Assembly (NCBI GenBank): GCA_030599585.1
Contig: JAUVNS010000005.1
Location: 279,121-343,120, forward strand
Reading direction: 5' to 3'
DNA: 64,000 bases
Source: Promethearchaeota archaeon
Lineage (GTDB): Archaea > Asgardarchaeota > Lokiarchaeia > Sigyniarchaeales > SOKP01
The notes under the pieces were generated by a model. That model was given only the letters and a program-made list of their open reading frames with translations. It did no database searches and was not told where the DNA came from. Positions 41,913-57,098 of the stretch are shown one piece after another. The translations under genes and the position numbers were made by a program. Each line of letters opens with the position of its first letter. Positions within the stretch are counted from its first letter, which is position 1.

Positions 41913-42012
41913 TTTTAATCAGGTATGTTTTTGATTTTTGGTAAGATAGGTAGGACTTAGCGGATATAAAAACTAAAAGAAGTAGTTGGATTAATGAATT
42001 GCGTCAAAAAAA

Positions 42013-42108
42013 GGGTGAGGATTGAGGAGAGTGGCAGGCTCTCCCTAATCCGTTAAAATAGTGAAGGTTACTGGTCTTAATTTTTGTGAGTATTTAAATA
42101 AAAAATGA
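42013..42108 (-). ncRNA. Promoter plus putative ~60-nt hairpin small RNA, copy A
   Basis: TTTAAATA box, hairpin GGATT.GGGAGAG/CTCTCC..AATCC, oligo-T end; homologous to 49566..49662. Confidence 0.55.
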
Positions 42109-42251
42109 CTATTGGAATACTAATTTCCATCGCGTAGCCCTTAAACCCTTCTTTAGTTAAACCTTACTAATCGAGGAGGAAAAGGTATAGTTTTGTTATC
42201 AAACGCGTATATTTGTAAACAAAATAACGCAAAAGTAGACAATTACAAGTG

Positions 42252-43269: not shown

Positions 43270-45213
43270 TTACTTGTTAATCATAGCTAAAAATTCTTCT
43301 TCCGTTATGATCTTCGAACCTTGTTCTTGAGCTTTAGTGTATTTACTGGTTTGCTCGGTGCTATTGGTTACCAAATACGACAAATTTGTTACCACCCCGC
43401 TTTTTGGAGTGCCGCCGTGTTCGGTTACTAAAGCGTTGGCTTCGTTTCTATTCATAGTCTCGAGTTTTCCCGTAAAACAAAAGGTTAGTCCCTCTAATTT
43501 ATTACTTCCCATTTTCCTCCTCCTTATTGTTATTTTATTAGTTTTTAGAGTTTGCTGCATGTCAAAATATAGCGCGTGAAACTCGGTGTAAAACTGGTTA
43601 GCGGTAATGTCGGCAAATAACTCTACCCTCTTTAAATCGTGGACGGTTGCGTTGCTGATTTTCTCTAAAGTGTCGTATCCCGCCTGAACAATTTTTTCCA
43701 CTAACGATTCTCCGATGTTTTCGAGGTCGAATCCACCTACAAATTTTGCCAGAGGGATTTGTTTTACCGCAAGTAAGTTGTTTAACGCTTTCTGAGCTGA
43801 TTTTTCTCCAACTCTATCCAATTTGGTAAGGTCTGATACCTTTAAGTCATACAAGTCGGCTATTTTCTTGACTTTTCCAGAGCTAAAGAGTTGTTTTAGA
43901 ATGAGTTCGCCGAAATTTTTCACGTCGAGTTTTTTAATCCACCTTAAAAGTCTATGATACGCTCTTTTGGGACATTCTTTGTTAGGACAATACAACCGAG
44001 TGCCTTCGTTAACTAAGACGGTGCTACAAGCGTTGCATATGGATGGATACTGCACTTTTTTTGCTTCTGGTGGAGTGTGGATAACCCTCTCGATCTTTGG
44101 AATGATATCGCCTCTTTTTGAAACGATGACCCTCGAACCGATTTTTAGGTTAAGTTCATTTACTAAGCTTGGGTTGGCTAAACTCGCTCTCTTGACCGTA
44201 GTCCCGGCAATTAGTACTGGTTCGATAATACCGATGGGCGTGTAATTAGCACCAGATTCGCTCCATTCCACGTCTATTACGGTGGATTCTATCTCCTCTG
44301 GATCGAATTTGAAGGCAATTTGTTTTTTCGGTCTTGCTCTTTGCATGTCTTCCAAGTCAATCACGTTTCCCTTTATCACCAAACCATCGATATCGAAGTT
44401 AAGCTGTGCTCTCATAGAGGCCATCACTTCGTCCCTAAAACTTACCACCTCGTTAGTCGATTTGAAAAAATATGTTCTAACTACTTTAAATTGGTTTGTT
44501 TTTAACCATTCTATCTTTTTTCCCTCGTCTTTGAATTTATAGTTAGGATTCTTGCTTATAGCGTCGTAAGCTAAGATAGTTAAATCTTCACTTCCTTTAC
44601 CGTCCTTTCTTTTGGTGATTCCGCTAGCCATATTTCTGCTGTTCTTTGCTTCGGGATAGTTCTTGTTGAATATACACTTGGTTAAAACGATTTCACCTCT
44701 TATAGCTCCAGTAAATTCGGGATTTATCTCAGGAACAAAGAACTGCATCTTCTTTAAGTTGTTTGAAATATCATCTCCGATTTGTCCATCGCCCCGAGTC
44801 ACTCCGCATTTAAACATTCCTTTAATGTATTGAAGTTCTACGCTTATTCCATCTAGTTTGAATTGTGTAATAAAAAGATCGTAATTCATCTTCCTTGCCC
44901 ACTTGGTAAACTCGGCAGAATTTGTCACCTTAGCTTGCGAATTCATCGGAATTATGTGTCTAATCTTATTAAGAGAAGTATCATAATCGTAACCAACTTT
45001 GGTAAATACTTCGTTATCAGGATCGAGTAGTTTTAGTTCGTCCCAGAGTTTGTCGAATTCAGCGTCAGAAATTTCTGGTTGGGCGTTGTAATAAAGATGT
45101 TGGTGGTATTCTATTTGTTCTTGTAAGATTTTAATTCGATCTGATTTAGGTCGATTATTTGAAGACTTTTCTCCCGAAGAGACCGAGTCAAACAATTTTA
45201 ACTGTTTTCCCAC
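43270..45213 (-). CDS. ligA: NAD-dependent DNA ligase
   Basis: YYNAQPEISDAEFDKL, KLDG, TRGDG, DGLVIK, GDIIP, Zn finger, HhH, C-terminal BRCT (FCFTG...ITEEEF). Confidence 0.95.
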   Translation of the reverse strand: MGKQLKLFDSVSSGEKSSNNRPKSDRIKILQEQIEYHQHLYYNAQPEISDAEFDKLWDELKLLDPDNEVFTKVGYDYDTSLNKIRHIIPMNSQAKVTNSAEFTKWARKMNYDLFITQFKLDGISVELQYIKGMFKCGVTRGDGQIGDDISNNLKKMQFFVPEINPEFTGAIRGEIVLTKCIFNKNYPEAKNSRNMASGITKRKDGKGSEDLTILAYDAISKNPNYKFKDEGKKIEWLKTNQFKVVRTYFFKSTNEVVSFRDEVMASMRAQLNFDIDGLVIKGNVIDLEDMQRARPKKQIAFKFDPEEIESTVIDVEWSESGANYTPIGIIEPVLIAGTTVKRASLANPSLVNELNLKIGSRVIVSKRGDIIPKIERVIHTPPEAKKVQYPSICNACSTVLVNEGTRLYCPNKECPKRAYHRLLRWIKKLDVKNFGELILKQLFSSGKVKKIADLYDLKVSDLTKLDRVGEKSAQKALNNLLAVKQIPLAKFVGGFDLENIGESLVEKIVQAGYDTLEKISNATVHDLKRVELFADITANQFYTEFHALYFDMQQTLKTNKITIRRRKMGSNKLEGLTFCFTGKLETMNRNEANALVTEHGGTPKSGVVTNLSYLVTNSTEQTSKYTKAQEQGSKIITEEEFLAMINK

Positions 45214-47206: not shown

Positions 47207-48661
47207 TTAGAATTCTTTGTTAAACATATTCCTCACCAAATTATACACGTAGTTGCCTTTTACGCCTTTGGAAGTTATCCATATACAGTTCGAACTGTCG
47301 ATCACTTTGTAGGAAACGCCTTCGACGGAAAAATTGCAAGCGGTGTACGTGGTATTACCCATTTTATGAGAATGTACGACCTCCTTACTAATTTCGTAAG
47401 AGATTTTTAGCTCGTCTAAAGTTCGCAACAACGCAGAATACGATTTTGGCTTCATATATCTAAACCTCTTCTCTACTTCTTTTTTATTTAGAGCAATTTT
47501 ACCTTGAATAGTTTTACTTACAGATTTTCTGTTGTTTAAGTCGTTTACCCTAACCTCTCTTTCTTTTTTCTGCTCTGCGTATTTTTCTCTTCGGTAAGCG
47601 CGAAGGTATTCATTTCGTCTAACCCTATTATTAAACCTAACGCACCTTAATTTCATAGCGGTCAGCTCCTTAACCTTTAACTTTTCTAAGTAATTTTCAA
47701 TATTATTTTCTACTATAATTCTCGTTACTTTTAATGGTCGGTGAACCTTACGCGCAATTTCTCGATAACTTAATTTTTCATTTCTAAGCCGGCACGCCGT
47801 GAGGATTTCTTGCTGTGTAATGCGGTATCGAACATTATAATTACTGTAATCGCCCAAATTTTGCTCCAAGACGGAGATTATTTTATCTTGTGGCAAATTT
47901 ACACACTTAGCAATATCATCTAGAGTCCGACCTGAGCGCCACAATGCTTCGATTTCTTCTTTTCTCGTTCTGGCGTTAATCTCGAGTTGGGAAGCTTTTT
48001 CGTTAATTTTGCGTTTCATTAATTCAAAAGAAGGTTTAAGACCAAGAGTATTTGGAATATTTAAGTAAGGAAAAATTTTATTTGAAACAGAGGTGTAAAT
48101 AGTACTCTGGCAGATGCCAGCTCTTTCGGATATTAGTTTTATAGTAACGCCTTGAAGGCCTAACGAAATAGACGTGAGAGCGCAAATTACTGCCGCAACG
48201 ATCTCTTCTTTTTTATGCTGTATAAGCGGATAAAAAAGGGTAAAAAGAGCCAAAGCGTTCGCAATAGTTAGCGGTTTTGCTTTGAAGCTTCTTAAAATCG
48301 TTGCAATGTATTTCTTAGTAATGGTCTTTTTATCGCGTATGGTATAATCAGGATAAAATTTTAACACTTTTTTTAAATTCGTCGTAAACCCTTTGTATTT
48401 TAAGTTAAAATAATCCAAAAAATTGGGAAGGACTATTAGAATTCCCCGCGTTTTCAAAAAAATGTAAAATACAATCGGACCAAGCTTATCTAAAGCAGTA
48501 AACTGCGTGTGAGGGTTCACTATATCTCTTACTTGGTAATAAAAATGGACGAAATCGTCGCAATCGCCGTTTAATTTTTTGACTTGTAAAAATTCTAGCG
48601 CGCCCAAGTAGAATTTACTTACTTCGTTTTCTTGTTGTTTTTCTACTGCTATTGTTTCCAT
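47207..48661 (-). CDS. TFB-like cyclin-fold protein with C-terminal HTH domains, paralog 1
   Basis: Two cyclin-repeat-like segments (EIVAAVICAL...IKLISERAGICQSTI); LSYREIARKV HTH; no N-terminal Zn ribbon. Confidence 0.6.
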   Translation of the reverse strand: METIAVEKQQENEVSKFYLGALEFLQVKKLNGDCDDFVHFYYQVRDIVNPHTQFTALDKLGPIVFYIFLKTRGILIVLPNFLDYFNLKYKGFTTNLKKVLKFYPDYTIRDKKTITKKYIATILRSFKAKPLTIANALALFTLFYPLIQHKKEEIVAAVICALTSISLGLQGVTIKLISERAGICQSTIYTSVSNKIFPYLNIPNTLGLKPSFELMKRKINEKASQLEINARTRKEEIEALWRSGRTLDDIAKCVNLPQDKIISVLEQNLGDYSNYNVRYRITQQEILTACRLRNEKLSYREIARKVHRPLKVTRIIVENNIENYLEKLKVKELTAMKLRCVRFNNRVRRNEYLRAYRREKYAEQKKEREVRVNDLNNRKSVSKTIQGKIALNKKEVEKRFRYMKPKSYSALLRTLDELKISYEISKEVVHSHKMGNTTYTACNFSVEGVSYKVIDSSNCIWITSKGVKGNYVYNLVRNMFNKEF

Positions 48662-48839: not shown

Positions 48840-49125
48840 TTATAAAAAGTAATTTTTTTTATTATAATAAATTGGGTTAAAATCAAGAAGGCTAGGATGT
48901 CGTAACAGAAAGTGTTTCATAATATACTTGGAGTACGCGGGTGGGATTGCCTCAGTTAGAGGGTGTCTACTGGGTAACACCGGACCAAGCGTAGGGTGGT
49001 TGATTGAAACTCGGTACTTTTCGTCTTTCCATTCGAAAGGAATCCAGTCTATTTCCATTGCTTCGGACCAATCGTCGTAAGTTCTAACAAAGTATCCCTC
49101 TTTCTCGCGCCTTCCATCTGGTTGC
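48840..49125 (-). pseudogene. C-terminal remnant of a phage-type C5 DNA methyltransferase
   Basis: WSEAMEIDW...LTEAIPPAYSKYI matches the AMGIDW...EAIPPAY C-terminus of small phage cytosine MTases; catalytic N-terminus replaced by repeats. Confidence 0.6.
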
Positions 49126-49145
49126 AAAGTTAATATCTGGTTAAT

Positions 49146-49381
49146 ATCTGGTTGCGACACTTTAGTGAAACGCAGTCGCACAAAGATTAAACCGAAGGAT
49201 TCATATCCAAAATCGTTGTGCTACGGAGAGAAACGAGTTACGCGCAACCTGGTGGCGTAAAGTAAGCAAATTTCCATCTGGTTGCGACACTTAAGCGGAA
49301 CGGAGCTCAACCAAACTGAGCAAACCGAAGGATTCATATATAGCGAATGGTCGCGAAGTTCAGCGAGTTACGCGCAACCTG
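49146..49381. repeat. Two 106-bp structured units at 130-bp period with three invariant blocks
   Basis: ATCTGGTTGCGACACTT / AAACCGAAGGATTCATAT / CGAGTTACGCGCAACCTG conserved; intervening segments differ. Confidence 0.9.
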
Positions 49382-49565
49382 TTTAAAAAATTCCCGGCGA
49401 AATTATCTAATTCGGCGCTTTTGTTCCTGCTGAGAAAAAACAAGATTTTATCATCTTTTTCTTTTACCATTTTCTGCCGATCCATACTATAAAACATAAG
49501 AATTAGAAGATTTAAAAACTAAGGGAAGCAAAAGGATTAATAATTTGTGTTCAGACAAGCGTGGG

Positions 49566-49662
49566 GGGTGAGGACAAGAGAGAGCTGGTGCGGACTCTCT
49601 CCAATCCGTATGGTAGTGAAGGACAAAAACTTCTATCTTCGTGAGTATTTAAACAAAAAATG
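49566..49662 (-). ncRNA. Promoter plus putative hairpin small RNA, copy B
   Basis: Same blocks and 18-nt spacing as 42013..42108; hairpin retained despite substitutions. Confidence 0.55.
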
Positions 49663-53957: not shown

Positions 53958-54905
53958 TTATTTAAAAAAATCGTCTGCGTGCACGAACTGAAACCCACAC
54001 CGGTTCGCAAAGGTGTTGTCGACTTTCATATCACCAACCATTATACATTGTGAAGGATCAAGCTTGTGTTTTTCTATAAATTCTACCCCGATTCCAGGCA
54101 TCGGCTTTCTGCAATAACAAACTTGTGGAAACGCCGGATGAGGACAAAATTTACGTTCGAAATCGATCCCTAAAAGCGCGTGGGTGTTTTCGAAGCATTT
54201 GATAAGCTGTTTGATGGTGAAATCTCCTTTAGCAACAAACGATTGATTCGAAACCCCTAAGAGCAAGTAGCCTTTTTTCGGGTATTCTTTTAACACTTCG
54301 GCTCGGTTAGGAAGTATTTCAATATCTTCAGGAGTTGAAGGATATCTTTCTCCTGACTTCGTTTTTCTAAGAGTCCCGTCGTAATCTAAAATAATAGCTT
54401 TGTTTTTATATACTGTTTTATCAATTTTCCGTTTAAACTTTATCTTTTTTACGTTGTGAAACCCTTCTTCTTTTTTTGGAGTTTGAACCGTCTTTCGGTA
54501 CTTGTAGATTACTACCGGAGGATAAACACCCACCTCTTTTGTATTTTTTATCTCTTCGGGGTTTAAAAGGCTTCCGTAGGTGTCGATTAACCGCTTAGAA
54601 GCGTTATATAAAGTGTCTCCAACGTCAATATTAATGTATTTACAGTGAATTTCGAAATCGTTGTCGTGGGCCCATTTGATAATTGACTGTCGAGACTCTA
54701 CTGTCGGGTAGGTGTTATCCATAACAAATTGAGAAGTTTTGCTGTTAATATACTGGTGTTCTACGTGTTTGACTAAATCGTTTAACGACCCGCCCAGTTC
54801 GTCCCTATTAACCCTATAACGTCCTTGAGTTTCGTATTTTTTTGCGAGCACAGTTTTTCCTGAAGCAGGATATCCCATAACGATAATAATTTCTTTTTTC
54901 GTCAT
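53958..54905 (-). CDS. Polynucleotide kinase/3'-phosphatase (kinase + HAD-IIIA)
   Basis: GYPASGKT, RVNRD, MDNT; LDYDGTL, SNQS, CRKPMPG, MVGD. Confidence 0.88.
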   Translation of the reverse strand: MTKKEIIIVMGYPASGKTVLAKKYETQGRYRVNRDELGGSLNDLVKHVEHQYINSKTSQFVMDNTYPTVESRQSIIKWAHDNDFEIHCKYINIDVGDTLYNASKRLIDTYGSLLNPEEIKNTKEVGVYPPVVIYKYRKTVQTPKKEEGFHNVKKIKFKRKIDKTVYKNKAIILDYDGTLRKTKSGERYPSTPEDIEILPNRAEVLKEYPKKGYLLLGVSNQSFVAKGDFTIKQLIKCFENTHALLGIDFERKFCPHPAFPQVCYCRKPMPGIGVEFIEKHKLDPSQCIMVGDMKVDNTFANRCGFQFVHADDFFK

Positions 54906-54983: not shown

Positions 54984-56843
54984 TTAACAATGTTTACAAG
55001 CGAAGATTTTCTTGTTGTCTGGATATATTTGCAAGAAGACAAATTTGCCGCACTTTGCGCAGAGAACGTCGGTTTCTCGTTCTTCCAACAGTTCCCCTAG
55101 CTGCTCCATTAGCAACAATCCTTTCCTAACAATTGGTTTACCGAAACCAAGTTCTTTCTGTAACAACTCAATTTGATGGAAATTTATTTTCCTGCCTATT
55201 ACACCCGTAATAATTAGCTTTATCGCTCCCTTTTTAATAGACGGACAAGAAGCGCAAATAGTGGTTGCGAGAATGATCGCTTCGTCCCAAAAAAGATTTC
55301 TTTCCTTCAATAACTCAGTTATACTTTGAATCTGCGCTTCGATTTTTTGAACTTTATCTGCTACAGCCCTTAGATCTTTAGCTTCTACTTGTGGTATTTT
55401 TGGCGCGGAAGCAATAATTTCGAGGTAATCAAATATCGACTGGAGGTTAATTTGTTTTTTAATAACTAGATTAACCTGTGTTGCAATGGTTTCACCAGCA
55501 AACTTTTTGAGGGCTAGATTTGTTCTTATGGCGGTCCCGCTGATACCGATTAGATTTGCTACCTCTTGCTTAGGGATTTGTGGAAAGCTCAACGCCAATG
55601 CTATCCCTAAAACTGTTTTCTCAAATCGGTAAAGTTTTACTTCAGACAAGTAACGACCAGTCTTTGTAATATTTTTTTTAACGCTCTCTTCGTTTTGCAG
55701 GAGAAGGTAGTCTAACTTGCTTAACGGAATTTTTTGACTTCTTTTTTCTTTAATTTTTCTTAACAGTTCGAAGTAGAATTGGACTATTGGTTCGGGGTTA
55801 ATAGAACCTCTTGGGACTTGTAATTTTGCTCGTTTTACCCGATCTCTAGGGGGGATGTATTTATAAGCAGCGTGACCTTCGAGATTATTTTCTACGATTT
55901 GTTTTATAATCTTTTGCTGTCGATGGAGCCTCAGAGCGATCTCTAGATAACTCAACCCTTTCTTCCTGAGTTGACAAGCAGCGTCGATTTCTTGTTGCGT
56001 AACGTTATATCGGATTTTATAATTTCTATAATCGCCTAATTTATCCTTTAATAAGGCTATAATTTTATTTTTGGGATTTTCTACTAAATAAACCACTTGA
56101 ACGAGAGTAAGACCCGAGCACCATAAATCTACGACTTCTTCCTCTACCGTTCTAGCGTCAATTTCGGCTAAGGAAGTCTTTTTGCGTATCTTCCCTTTTA
56201 TCAGCTCAAAAGATGATTTAAGCTTAAAAGTACTGGGAATACCTAGGTAAGGAAAAATTTTAGTAGTAATTGATTTGTGAAGGCTACTTTGGCGGATACC
56301 GGCTCTATTACAGATAAATCTCATGCTCACATCGTGAAGGTCGAACGAAATCGCTGTGAGCCCGCAGATTACTGCCGCTACGAGTTCTTCTTTCGTATAC
56401 TGTACGATCGGATAAAAATGGTCGAAAAGAGTTAAAGCGTGCGAAACAATCCTTTCTTCTACGAAGAAGCTTTTTAAAATGGTCCTGATGTATTTCTTAA
56501 CAATACTTGGTTTGTCTCGAGCGTTAAATTCAGGGTATATTTTTATAACTTTTTTTAAATCCGTAGTAAAATCGTAATACTTTACGTTGTACAAACGCAA
56601 CAAATCCGGAAGAATAAGTAAAATCCCCCGCGTTTTTAAGAATATGTAGAGCAAACTCGGACCAAGCCTATCTAAAGAAGTAAAATGCGTGTTTGGGTTT
56701 ACCAAGTCTCTTACGCCGTAATAAAAGCGAACGAATTCTTCGCATTTATCGTCCATACCCTCTATCAACAACCAACCCAAAGTGTCCAGAAAAAATTTGC
56801 TAATGTCGCCTTCTACTTGTTTTTCTATCGAAACTGTTTCCAT
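54984..56843 (-). CDS. TFB-like cyclin-fold protein with HTH and C-terminal Zn ribbon, paralog 2
   Basis: First ~320 aa colinear with 47207..48661; extra QEVANLIGISGTAIR segment; CAKCG...CKHC. Confidence 0.6.
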   Translation of the reverse strand: METVSIEKQVEGDISKFFLDTLGWLLIEGMDDKCEEFVRFYYGVRDLVNPNTHFTSLDRLGPSLLYIFLKTRGILLILPDLLRLYNVKYYDFTTDLKKVIKIYPEFNARDKPSIVKKYIRTILKSFFVEERIVSHALTLFDHFYPIVQYTKEELVAAVICGLTAISFDLHDVSMRFICNRAGIRQSSLHKSITTKIFPYLGIPSTFKLKSSFELIKGKIRKKTSLAEIDARTVEEEVVDLWCSGLTLVQVVYLVENPKNKIIALLKDKLGDYRNYKIRYNVTQQEIDAACQLRKKGLSYLEIALRLHRQQKIIKQIVENNLEGHAAYKYIPPRDRVKRAKLQVPRGSINPEPIVQFYFELLRKIKEKRSQKIPLSKLDYLLLQNEESVKKNITKTGRYLSEVKLYRFEKTVLGIALALSFPQIPKQEVANLIGISGTAIRTNLALKKFAGETIATQVNLVIKKQINLQSIFDYLEIIASAPKIPQVEAKDLRAVADKVQKIEAQIQSITELLKERNLFWDEAIILATTICASCPSIKKGAIKLIITGVIGRKINFHQIELLQKELGFGKPIVRKGLLLMEQLGELLEERETDVLCAKCGKFVFLQIYPDNKKIFACKHC

Positions 56844-57098
56844 TTTGTTTTACCTTTATTTTTTTTTAACTGTTTTAATCCCAATATCTGCTTGGTCTAT
56901 ATAAAAGAAAAAGAGGATAATTCGCGCGATGGTGCAATTTTTGTTTTAGTAGAATCGTAGTAATCTGATTTAAACTAATTTGATTAGGAGAAAAGGTTTA
57001 AGTAATTGAAATTAAGAAAAATAATCTAACCAAATTTTTCCTTTATATAAAGTTACATAAACTAAAATATAATTTGAAAAAGTTGGTAAATAAACATT

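Follow-up and report, generated by a model that had tools for sequence, protein, structure and literature searches.

In the genome of a Promethearchaeota archaeon, a stretch of 270 nucleotides was found to be composed of four pieces of retron DNA, which lie beside a broken gene. It covers positions 49112–49381 of the window, the whole stretch of 64,000 nucleotides that was analysed in our study. We consider it probable that this stretch is a patch of DNA that was derived from the reverse transcripts of a type XIII retron and became fixed where the chromosome had broken. Retrons are known as bacterial systems, and the Asgard lineage studied here is mostly known from metagenomes only. In the literature that we consulted, we found no description of a retron in an Asgard archaeon, no report of natural ncRNA arrays in type XIII retrons and no explained function for type XIII retrons.

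Results

Layout of the hairpin units

The patch contained two hairpin units of 106 nt each on the plus strand. Unit 1 extended from nucleotide 49146 to 49251 and unit 2 from nucleotide 49276 to 49381. Both units contained the same three constant blocks, without any mismatch: a block of 17 nt (from 49146 and 49276), followed by blocks of 18 nt (from 49189 and 49322) and 18 nt (from 49234 and 49364). The variable parts between the blocks were 26 and 27 nt long in unit 1 and 29 and 24 nt long in unit 2. The layout given in the preliminary description of this locus, two 106-nt units with three constant blocks, was thus confirmed to the nucleotide. The variable parts add up to 53 nt in both units, as had been stated there, but this sum is not a rule of the family, since unit lengths vary. 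No further copy of any constant block was found within the 64-kb window (expectation from shuffled sequence, 0.02–0.26 matches). The second constant block forms the constant apical loop (plus strand, 49189–49206 in unit 1 and 49322–49339 in unit 2), which reads cGAAg as DNA and cUUCGg as RNA, and in the alignment this loop was conserved in the units of both Asgard archaea and Bacillota.

The terminal 7-bp pairing and the differing internal pairings of the two units, both of them described earlier, were visible in the folds, and the three C-GNA-G pentamers reported for each unit were read directly on the plus strand. The folding energy of the single sequences was not significant, either as RNA or as DNA (z −0.7 to −1.7), and the case for structure is therefore built on the comparison with relatives. 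An Rfam scan by E-value of the window between 46 and 52 kb assigned no family to the units, and the tRNA/tmRNA scan of the window gave no tRNA or tmRNA. The variable segments of the units were compared with the rest of the genome and gave zero matches.

The patch begins with a 14-nt piece on the plus strand (49112–49125), the 5′-terminal piece of a unit-2-type cDNA, which is identical to nucleotides 49272–49285 and corresponds to bases 5–18 of the start of unit 2. Next comes a 14-nt 5′-terminal piece of unit 1 (49126–49139, plus strand), which holds the first copy of an 11-nt tandem duplication (49129–49139 and 49140–49150). The 14-nt partial copy and the duplication, which had been noticed before, are both real. 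The third piece (49140–49267, plus strand) is a complete msd-only copy of unit 1 in the cDNA sense and contains a short leader, the hairpin region 49146–49251 and a 3′ tail of 16 nt. The fourth piece (49268–49381, plus strand) is a second msd-only copy, unit 2, which is of another type, is cut at the base of the stem and has no 3′ tail. Units 1 and 2 meet head to tail, as unit 2 starts directly where the tail of unit 1 ends, and the two hairpin regions are 24 nt apart. All four pieces of the patch have one polarity.

Type XIII retron and its ncRNA

The constant blocks were found to recur elsewhere in the same 4.85-Mb genome. The search for them in this genome and in its relatives, which the preliminary description had proposed, gave copies that included full retron ncRNAs on contig C21. 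This contig contained three tandem full units of approximately 200 nt each, with extra conserved sequence on both sides, and they were located directly after an operon of a WGR/HEAT protein, a SWIM protein and a reverse transcriptase (RT). PADLOC assigned the operon to type XIII (SWIM_XIII, E 3e-169; RT_XIII, E 5e-82 and 1e-63; WGR_XIII, E 2e-15). When the window was searched by nhmmer against the three C21 ncRNAs, unit 1 was aligned to model positions 24–157 of 204 (E 1.3e-16) and unit 2 to positions 26–132 of 204 (E 3.5e-12), so the units match the msd of type XIII retron ncRNAs and cannot be called an undescribed type, as they had been at first. The three C21 ncRNAs are of types other than those of unit 1 and unit 2.

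The RT of C21 was split into two overlapping frames of 313 and 207 aa on the minus strand (C21:277729–279193, the same as L007:10730–12194), and in the relatives the type XIII RT was one continuous frame. The split could be a frameshift, a sequencing error or a recoding event, and it bears on the question of whether the retron is active today. This is the sole type XIII RT of the genome; a second, different RT is present on contig C15.

Outside this genome, the SWIM protein had its closest relatives in one MAG of the Promethearchaeota (58% identity) and in many Bacillota (51–56% identity); the contig of that MAG contains the sequence of a locus from a genome that belongs to the same family as the genome of the window. 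By nhmmer, most of the loci with SWIM relatives contained the same ncRNA family beside the HEAT, SWIM and RT genes, which gave approximately 40 loci of Bacillota (within L047–L090) and Promethearchaeota with 1–6 units per locus. In the Asgard loci and in some of the Clostridia, the ncRNA units follow the RT gene on the same strand. In the Lachnospiraceae-type loci and those of related Clostridia, up to 6 tandem units precede the operon; they are encoded on the other strand and point away from it. In full arrays the units were 240–300 nt apart, and the interval from one msd stem to the next contained a1/a2, the msr hairpin and a spacer. A search of 135 genomes of the family gave the SWIM gene in 6 of them and in no other genome of the genus. 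Type XIII corresponds to RT clade 10 of Mestre et al. (2020; PMC7736814), and its members include Retron-Mxa1/Mx162, Mxa2/Mx65, Sau1/Sa163, Nex2/Ne144 and a Firmicutes class (PMC7736814).

For the analysis of structure, 64 distinct full units were aligned in the reverse complement of the orientation used in the preliminary description and were folded with RNAalifold. The consensus fold contained an a1/a2 helix of 10 bp, an msr hairpin of 9 bp, which is rich in G-U pairs, and the base of the msd stem, with many compensatory changes. At the level of the family, the full units covary strongly, and they adjoin retron genes, so that the refutation named in the preliminary description, a lack of both covariation and conserved neighbours, does not apply at this level. 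Minimum free energies were calculated for both strands of the 64 full units and left the strand unsettled; it was settled by the count of the non-Watson-Crick pairs, as there were 253 G-U pairs against 12 A-C pairs when the units were read on the minus strand of the window. Because the G-U pairs far outnumber the A-C pairs, the RNA is assigned to the minus strand, and the plus strand has the sense of the cDNA (msDNA) with its 5′ end at the left. The folded single-stranded DNA that the preliminary description had read on the plus strand is accordingly of the sense of retron msDNA. Two opposing G nucleotides, one directly after a1 and one directly before a2, were each invariant in 64 of 64 full units; opposing Gs next to a1/a2 were described as a hallmark of retrons by Mestre et al. 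(PMC7736814). Judged from the alignment and the fold, the 106-nt unit is the msd stem-loop, and the 7 bp that pair at its ends represent the stem base and not a1/a2.

The window units and the type XIII retron ncRNA thus have the long msd stem-loop in common: the stem base and the constant apical loop are shared, and each unit contains variable stems of its own that are self-complementary. The units differ from the retron ncRNA in everything around this stem-loop. The a1/a2 repeats were absent, the alignment being limited to the model positions given above with unrelated flanks on either side. The region of the invariant branching G was absent as well, no msr hairpin was found between units 1 and 2 or beyond unit 2, and there was no RT among the window neighbours tested. 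Without these parts and an RT, the window copies cannot serve as templates for a retron, they do not qualify as retron ncRNA genes, and most likely they are inert. The earlier suggestion of priming is right for the parent RNA, which is a self-priming template, but not for the window copies, from which a1/a2, the branching G and the msr hairpin are missing. The leaders of both window units were shorter and more diverged than the family consensus, and their exact 5′ bases are for this reason less sure than those of most fossils.

Short copies in the genome and its relatives

The nhmmer search over the same genome and the loci from relatives gave 10 full units and 39 short copies. Twenty-six of the 39 short copies begin at model positions 12–18, immediately past the position that faces the invariant G, and the two window units and a copy on contig C12 begin at the equivalent point of a diverged leader. 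At the other side, 13 short copies end at model positions 138–157 and the remaining ends were scattered. The flanks of the short copies were mutually unrelated by eye. A common start of this kind would be expected for DNA that was begun at one priming site, and it would not be expected for random fragments of an array or for a cut-and-paste element. A few short copies reach outside the msd (model positions 5–60, 88–183 and 86–168). Fossils on contigs C20, C16, C34 and C32 match units 2 and 3 of C21, and unit-2-type pieces were also found on C24 and C30 of the same genome and in the genomes G084, G121, G096 and G005. In one short copy of another genome (L022:1480–1582, in G077:C8), the region of the apical loop was inverted beside the 3′ half of the stem, which looks like a snap-back rearrangement of the hairpin.

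The second large locus of the genome, C12:31545–31711, contained unit 1 at 99% identity (C12:31585–31711), beginning at the same first base, with unrelated flanks. It is followed by a 38-nt 3′-terminal piece of the unit-2 type with its tail and then by a 14-nt tail piece, and all of the C12 pieces have one polarity. In the genome G090 of the same genus, two different 5′-anchored pieces were found head to tail. The last 125 nt of the window contig (63876–64000) were 100% identical, in reverse, to the end of C12 (92482–92606). This identity is probably an overlap in the assembly graph, in which case C12 (G+C 0.36) probably continues the island, and the window and C12 loci would be parts of one replicon, in the same orientation and with approximately 75 kb between them. 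Both loci are in DNA of higher G+C than the rest of the genome.

Broken methyltransferase gene and flanks

The left side of the patch joins what remains of the 3′ end of a gene for a probable DNA cytosine-C5 methyltransferase on the minus strand (48840–49111), namely the last 77 codons and the stop codon. The remnant was 84% identical to residues 300–376 of the 378-aa protein P0001; the name methyltransferase is taken from the SPPCQ motif of P0001, to which Pfam assigns no family. The truncation reported in the preliminary description is thus real, and the homology ends at approximately 49112. The blastn alignment with an intact metagenomic locus (L108:1124–1356; 82% identical) ends at window position 49113, and a comparison of the three sequences showed a 2-nt microhomology (TT) where the remnant joins the first 14-nt piece. 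The first 299 codons or so of the gene were found nowhere in the same genome, and no intact methyltransferase was found among 135 genomes of the family. The empty-site test in the genus gave no allele with an intact site, and the state before the insertion was therefore deduced from the 82%-identical metagenomic gene with its short flanks. The only match in that test was the multicopy gene of a 484-aa protein beside the units, with non-syntenic flanks. This protein (window 47207–48661, minus strand) has weak HTH matches and is multicopy in the island, with a paralog at window 55878–56857 and further copies on C10 and on G084:C200; it is present in one other member of the genus, where the flanks are not shared.

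On the right side, a reading frame on the minus strand (49382–49485) starts with the ATG at 49485 and reaches the junction with unit 2 at its 35th codon; it then runs 6 codons into unit 2 before a stop codon. No paralog of these 35 codons was found in the same genome and no partner sequence was identified for the junction 49381/49382; the frame is possibly the 5′ end left over from a second broken gene. Further to the right, a G+C-rich hairpin element on the minus strand (49525–49662) had 69% identity to L108:11–149. Other copies of this element were found at window 41930–42112 and C10:11472–11657, and the L108 copy is at L108:6–197. The element precedes minus-strand genes and is made up of a hairpin stem that is conserved, a loop that varies and a tail rich in C; it could represent a leader or a small RNA. 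In L108, the related copy is followed by the intact methyltransferase gene, and the orthology of the two elements is uncertain because the element is multicopy.

The tested neighbours of the window and C12 copies contained no shared or telling family by Pfam and PADLOC, and no RT, recombinase/integrase, cas or defence family was found among those of the window. In the island near the patch, an NAD-dependent DNA ligase with a BRCT domain and a polynucleotide kinase/phosphatase-like protein were present (43270–45213 and 53958–54905, both on the minus strand), which are enzymes of DNA/RNA end healing and sealing.

Discussion

Proposed origin of the patch

The capture of retron cDNA that we consider probable would have begun with the transcription of an ncRNA by a type XIII retron, in the order a1, invariant G, msr hairpin, long msd stem-loop and a2. 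The RT would prime from the invariant G and copy the msd into single-stranded msDNA, which would have the sequence of the plus strand of the window, with its 5′ end at the left of each unit and cGAAg at the apex. The patch would then represent four pieces of two msDNA types, namely the start of type 2 (14 nt), the start of type 1 (14 nt), the whole of type 1 and a type 2 without its tail. These pieces may have been chained head to tail through template switches of the RT or of a repair polymerase, or through the ligation of single strands, and fixed at a chromosomal break inside the mobile island by an event that would also have removed the first 299 codons of the methyltransferase gene. We regard chained retron cDNA fixed at a break as the simplest account, since the pieces end at the predicted ends of msDNA, have one polarity and adjoin a deletion with microhomology; the argument from orientation is drawn from only three loci.

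Filler DNA and captured cDNA at double-strand breaks repaired by end joining are composed of several short pieces, with microhomology of a few nucleotides and loss of flanking sequence, and the insert of the window is alike in these respects. It differs in that the filler comes from a dedicated retroelement of bacterial type and that all of its pieces have one polarity.

A retron that could have supplied the two msDNA types was searched for widely. The stems of unit 1 and unit 2 were found in no ncRNA of the same genome or of the family, nor in 154 genomes of the order or 400 genomes of the phylum, and they had no match in the retron arrays of G121 and G043 or in two scans of viral contigs. 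The full units closest to the window stems were those of Asgard archaea. The donor retron may have been lost or may be unassembled, or the capture may have happened in an earlier host of the island.

Alternative explanations

The lack of a donor for the cDNA route is also a point in favour of the first alternative, in which the patch is the remnant, at the level of DNA, of a second ncRNA array in the island, from which later deletions took the RT, the effectors, the msr parts and a1/a2. Arrays of 2–6 units are normal for this group of retrons, and the few short copies with parts outside the msd would fit such an origin. However, real arrays have the wide spacing described above, whereas the tail of unit 1 abuts unit 2 exactly. 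The same end-to-end joins are present on C12, so that several precise deletions at the predicted ends of cDNA would be needed, and the stacked 14-nt pieces from the 5′ ends are left unexplained. We consider the array remnant unlikely.

A further possibility is a special form of cDNA capture, in which the event was not accidental and the type XIII system, whose RT is paired with a SWIM protein that has a transposase-like DEDE core, places or traps its own msDNA in broken foreign DNA. We think this rather improbable. If it were true, the patch of the window and the C12 copy would both be scars that a retron left when it acted on a mobile element, and the function of type XIII retrons would be readable from genomic scars.

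It is very unlikely that the units are a working element, either an msd-only array served by an msr in trans or a structured RNA or single-stranded DNA site for recombination, priming or guiding. In its favour, engineered msd arrays undergo reverse transcription when the msr is supplied in trans (10.1101/2023.07.17.549397), and in this genome the stems of both units are intact and unit 1 has been preserved at two places with 99% identity. But the trans arrangement still needs an a2 that pairs with a1, and a2 is present in neither unit; the tested neighbours include no RT, recombinase or cas family, and the sole type XIII RT is on another contig with a split frame. The preliminary description had proposed a recombination site and, as another choice, a guide array with two spacers. 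The units share with integron attC sites and with the hairpin promoters of phage N4 a folded single-stranded DNA with a stable GNA-type apex. They are unlike attC in that the 24 nt between them leave no cassette, the R/L box organisation is absent and no integrase was found in the tested neighbours, and the reading as an attC-like site was therefore not upheld. The guide array was not borne out either, as the variable parts pair within their own unit and match nothing else in the genome, and the tested neighbours gave no cas family. Partial pieces beside a broken gene resemble damage and not design, and the pair of units is present in only two loci.

A MITE-like non-autonomous transposon, whose hairpin ends would be recognised by a transposase such as the IS256/Mutator-like DEDE core proposed for the SWIM protein, is highly improbable: the hairpin ends do resemble terminal inverted repeats, the copies are scattered over many sites and a transposase-like DEDE motif was noted in the SWIM proteins of type XIII (Mestre et al., PMC7736814), but target-site duplications were seen neither at the window and C12 nor at the remaining full-length short copies, including those of relatives. 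Most copies have one fixed end and break off at widely varying points on the other side, which is not the output of cut-and-paste transposition. Of 101 genomes of the family, at least 29 contained short copies, against 6 of 135 with a SWIM gene, a gap that is only suggestive because MAGs are incomplete.

Comparison with known elements and significance

Repeats that resemble msDNA are present in the chromosome of Nannocystis exedens and have been interpreted as products of msDNA retrotransposition (Lampson and Rice, 1997; Lampson et al., 2002), according to the summary of Simon et al. (2019; PMC6868368). As far as that summary describes them, they are, like the window units, chromosomal copies of the msDNA-coding part that lie away from any RT (PMC6868368), and the kind of element reported here is in this sense already known. 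Retron-Nex2 (Ne144) of N. exedens itself belongs to type XIII (PMC7736814). The window units agree with a captured msDNA copy of the Nannocystis type in being limited to the reverse-transcribed part and in starting at the predicted priming site; the donor retron of the unit 1 and unit 2 types is the part that was not found. They differ from the N. exedens repeats, as these are summarised, in that the host is an Asgard archaeon and that pieces of two msDNA types are concatenated at a deletion junction in a mobile island. What is new here is the host, the junction of several pieces with a broken gene and the link in sequence to the arrays of the Bacillota type.

The copies are also natural cases of the entry of retron DNA into a chromosome, the very aim of retron-based editing. 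The locus of the window is the clearest junction found so far, since the join cuts off a gene of which an intact relative can be compared; together with the 2-nt microhomology and the single polarity of the pieces, these features make the capture route testable. For genome annotation, the finding is a warning that hairpin repeats of this kind are relics and not new RNA genes. For the archaeon and its relatives, the copies that are cut at the predicted start of reverse transcription are indirect evidence that a retron made DNA in vivo in this lineage.
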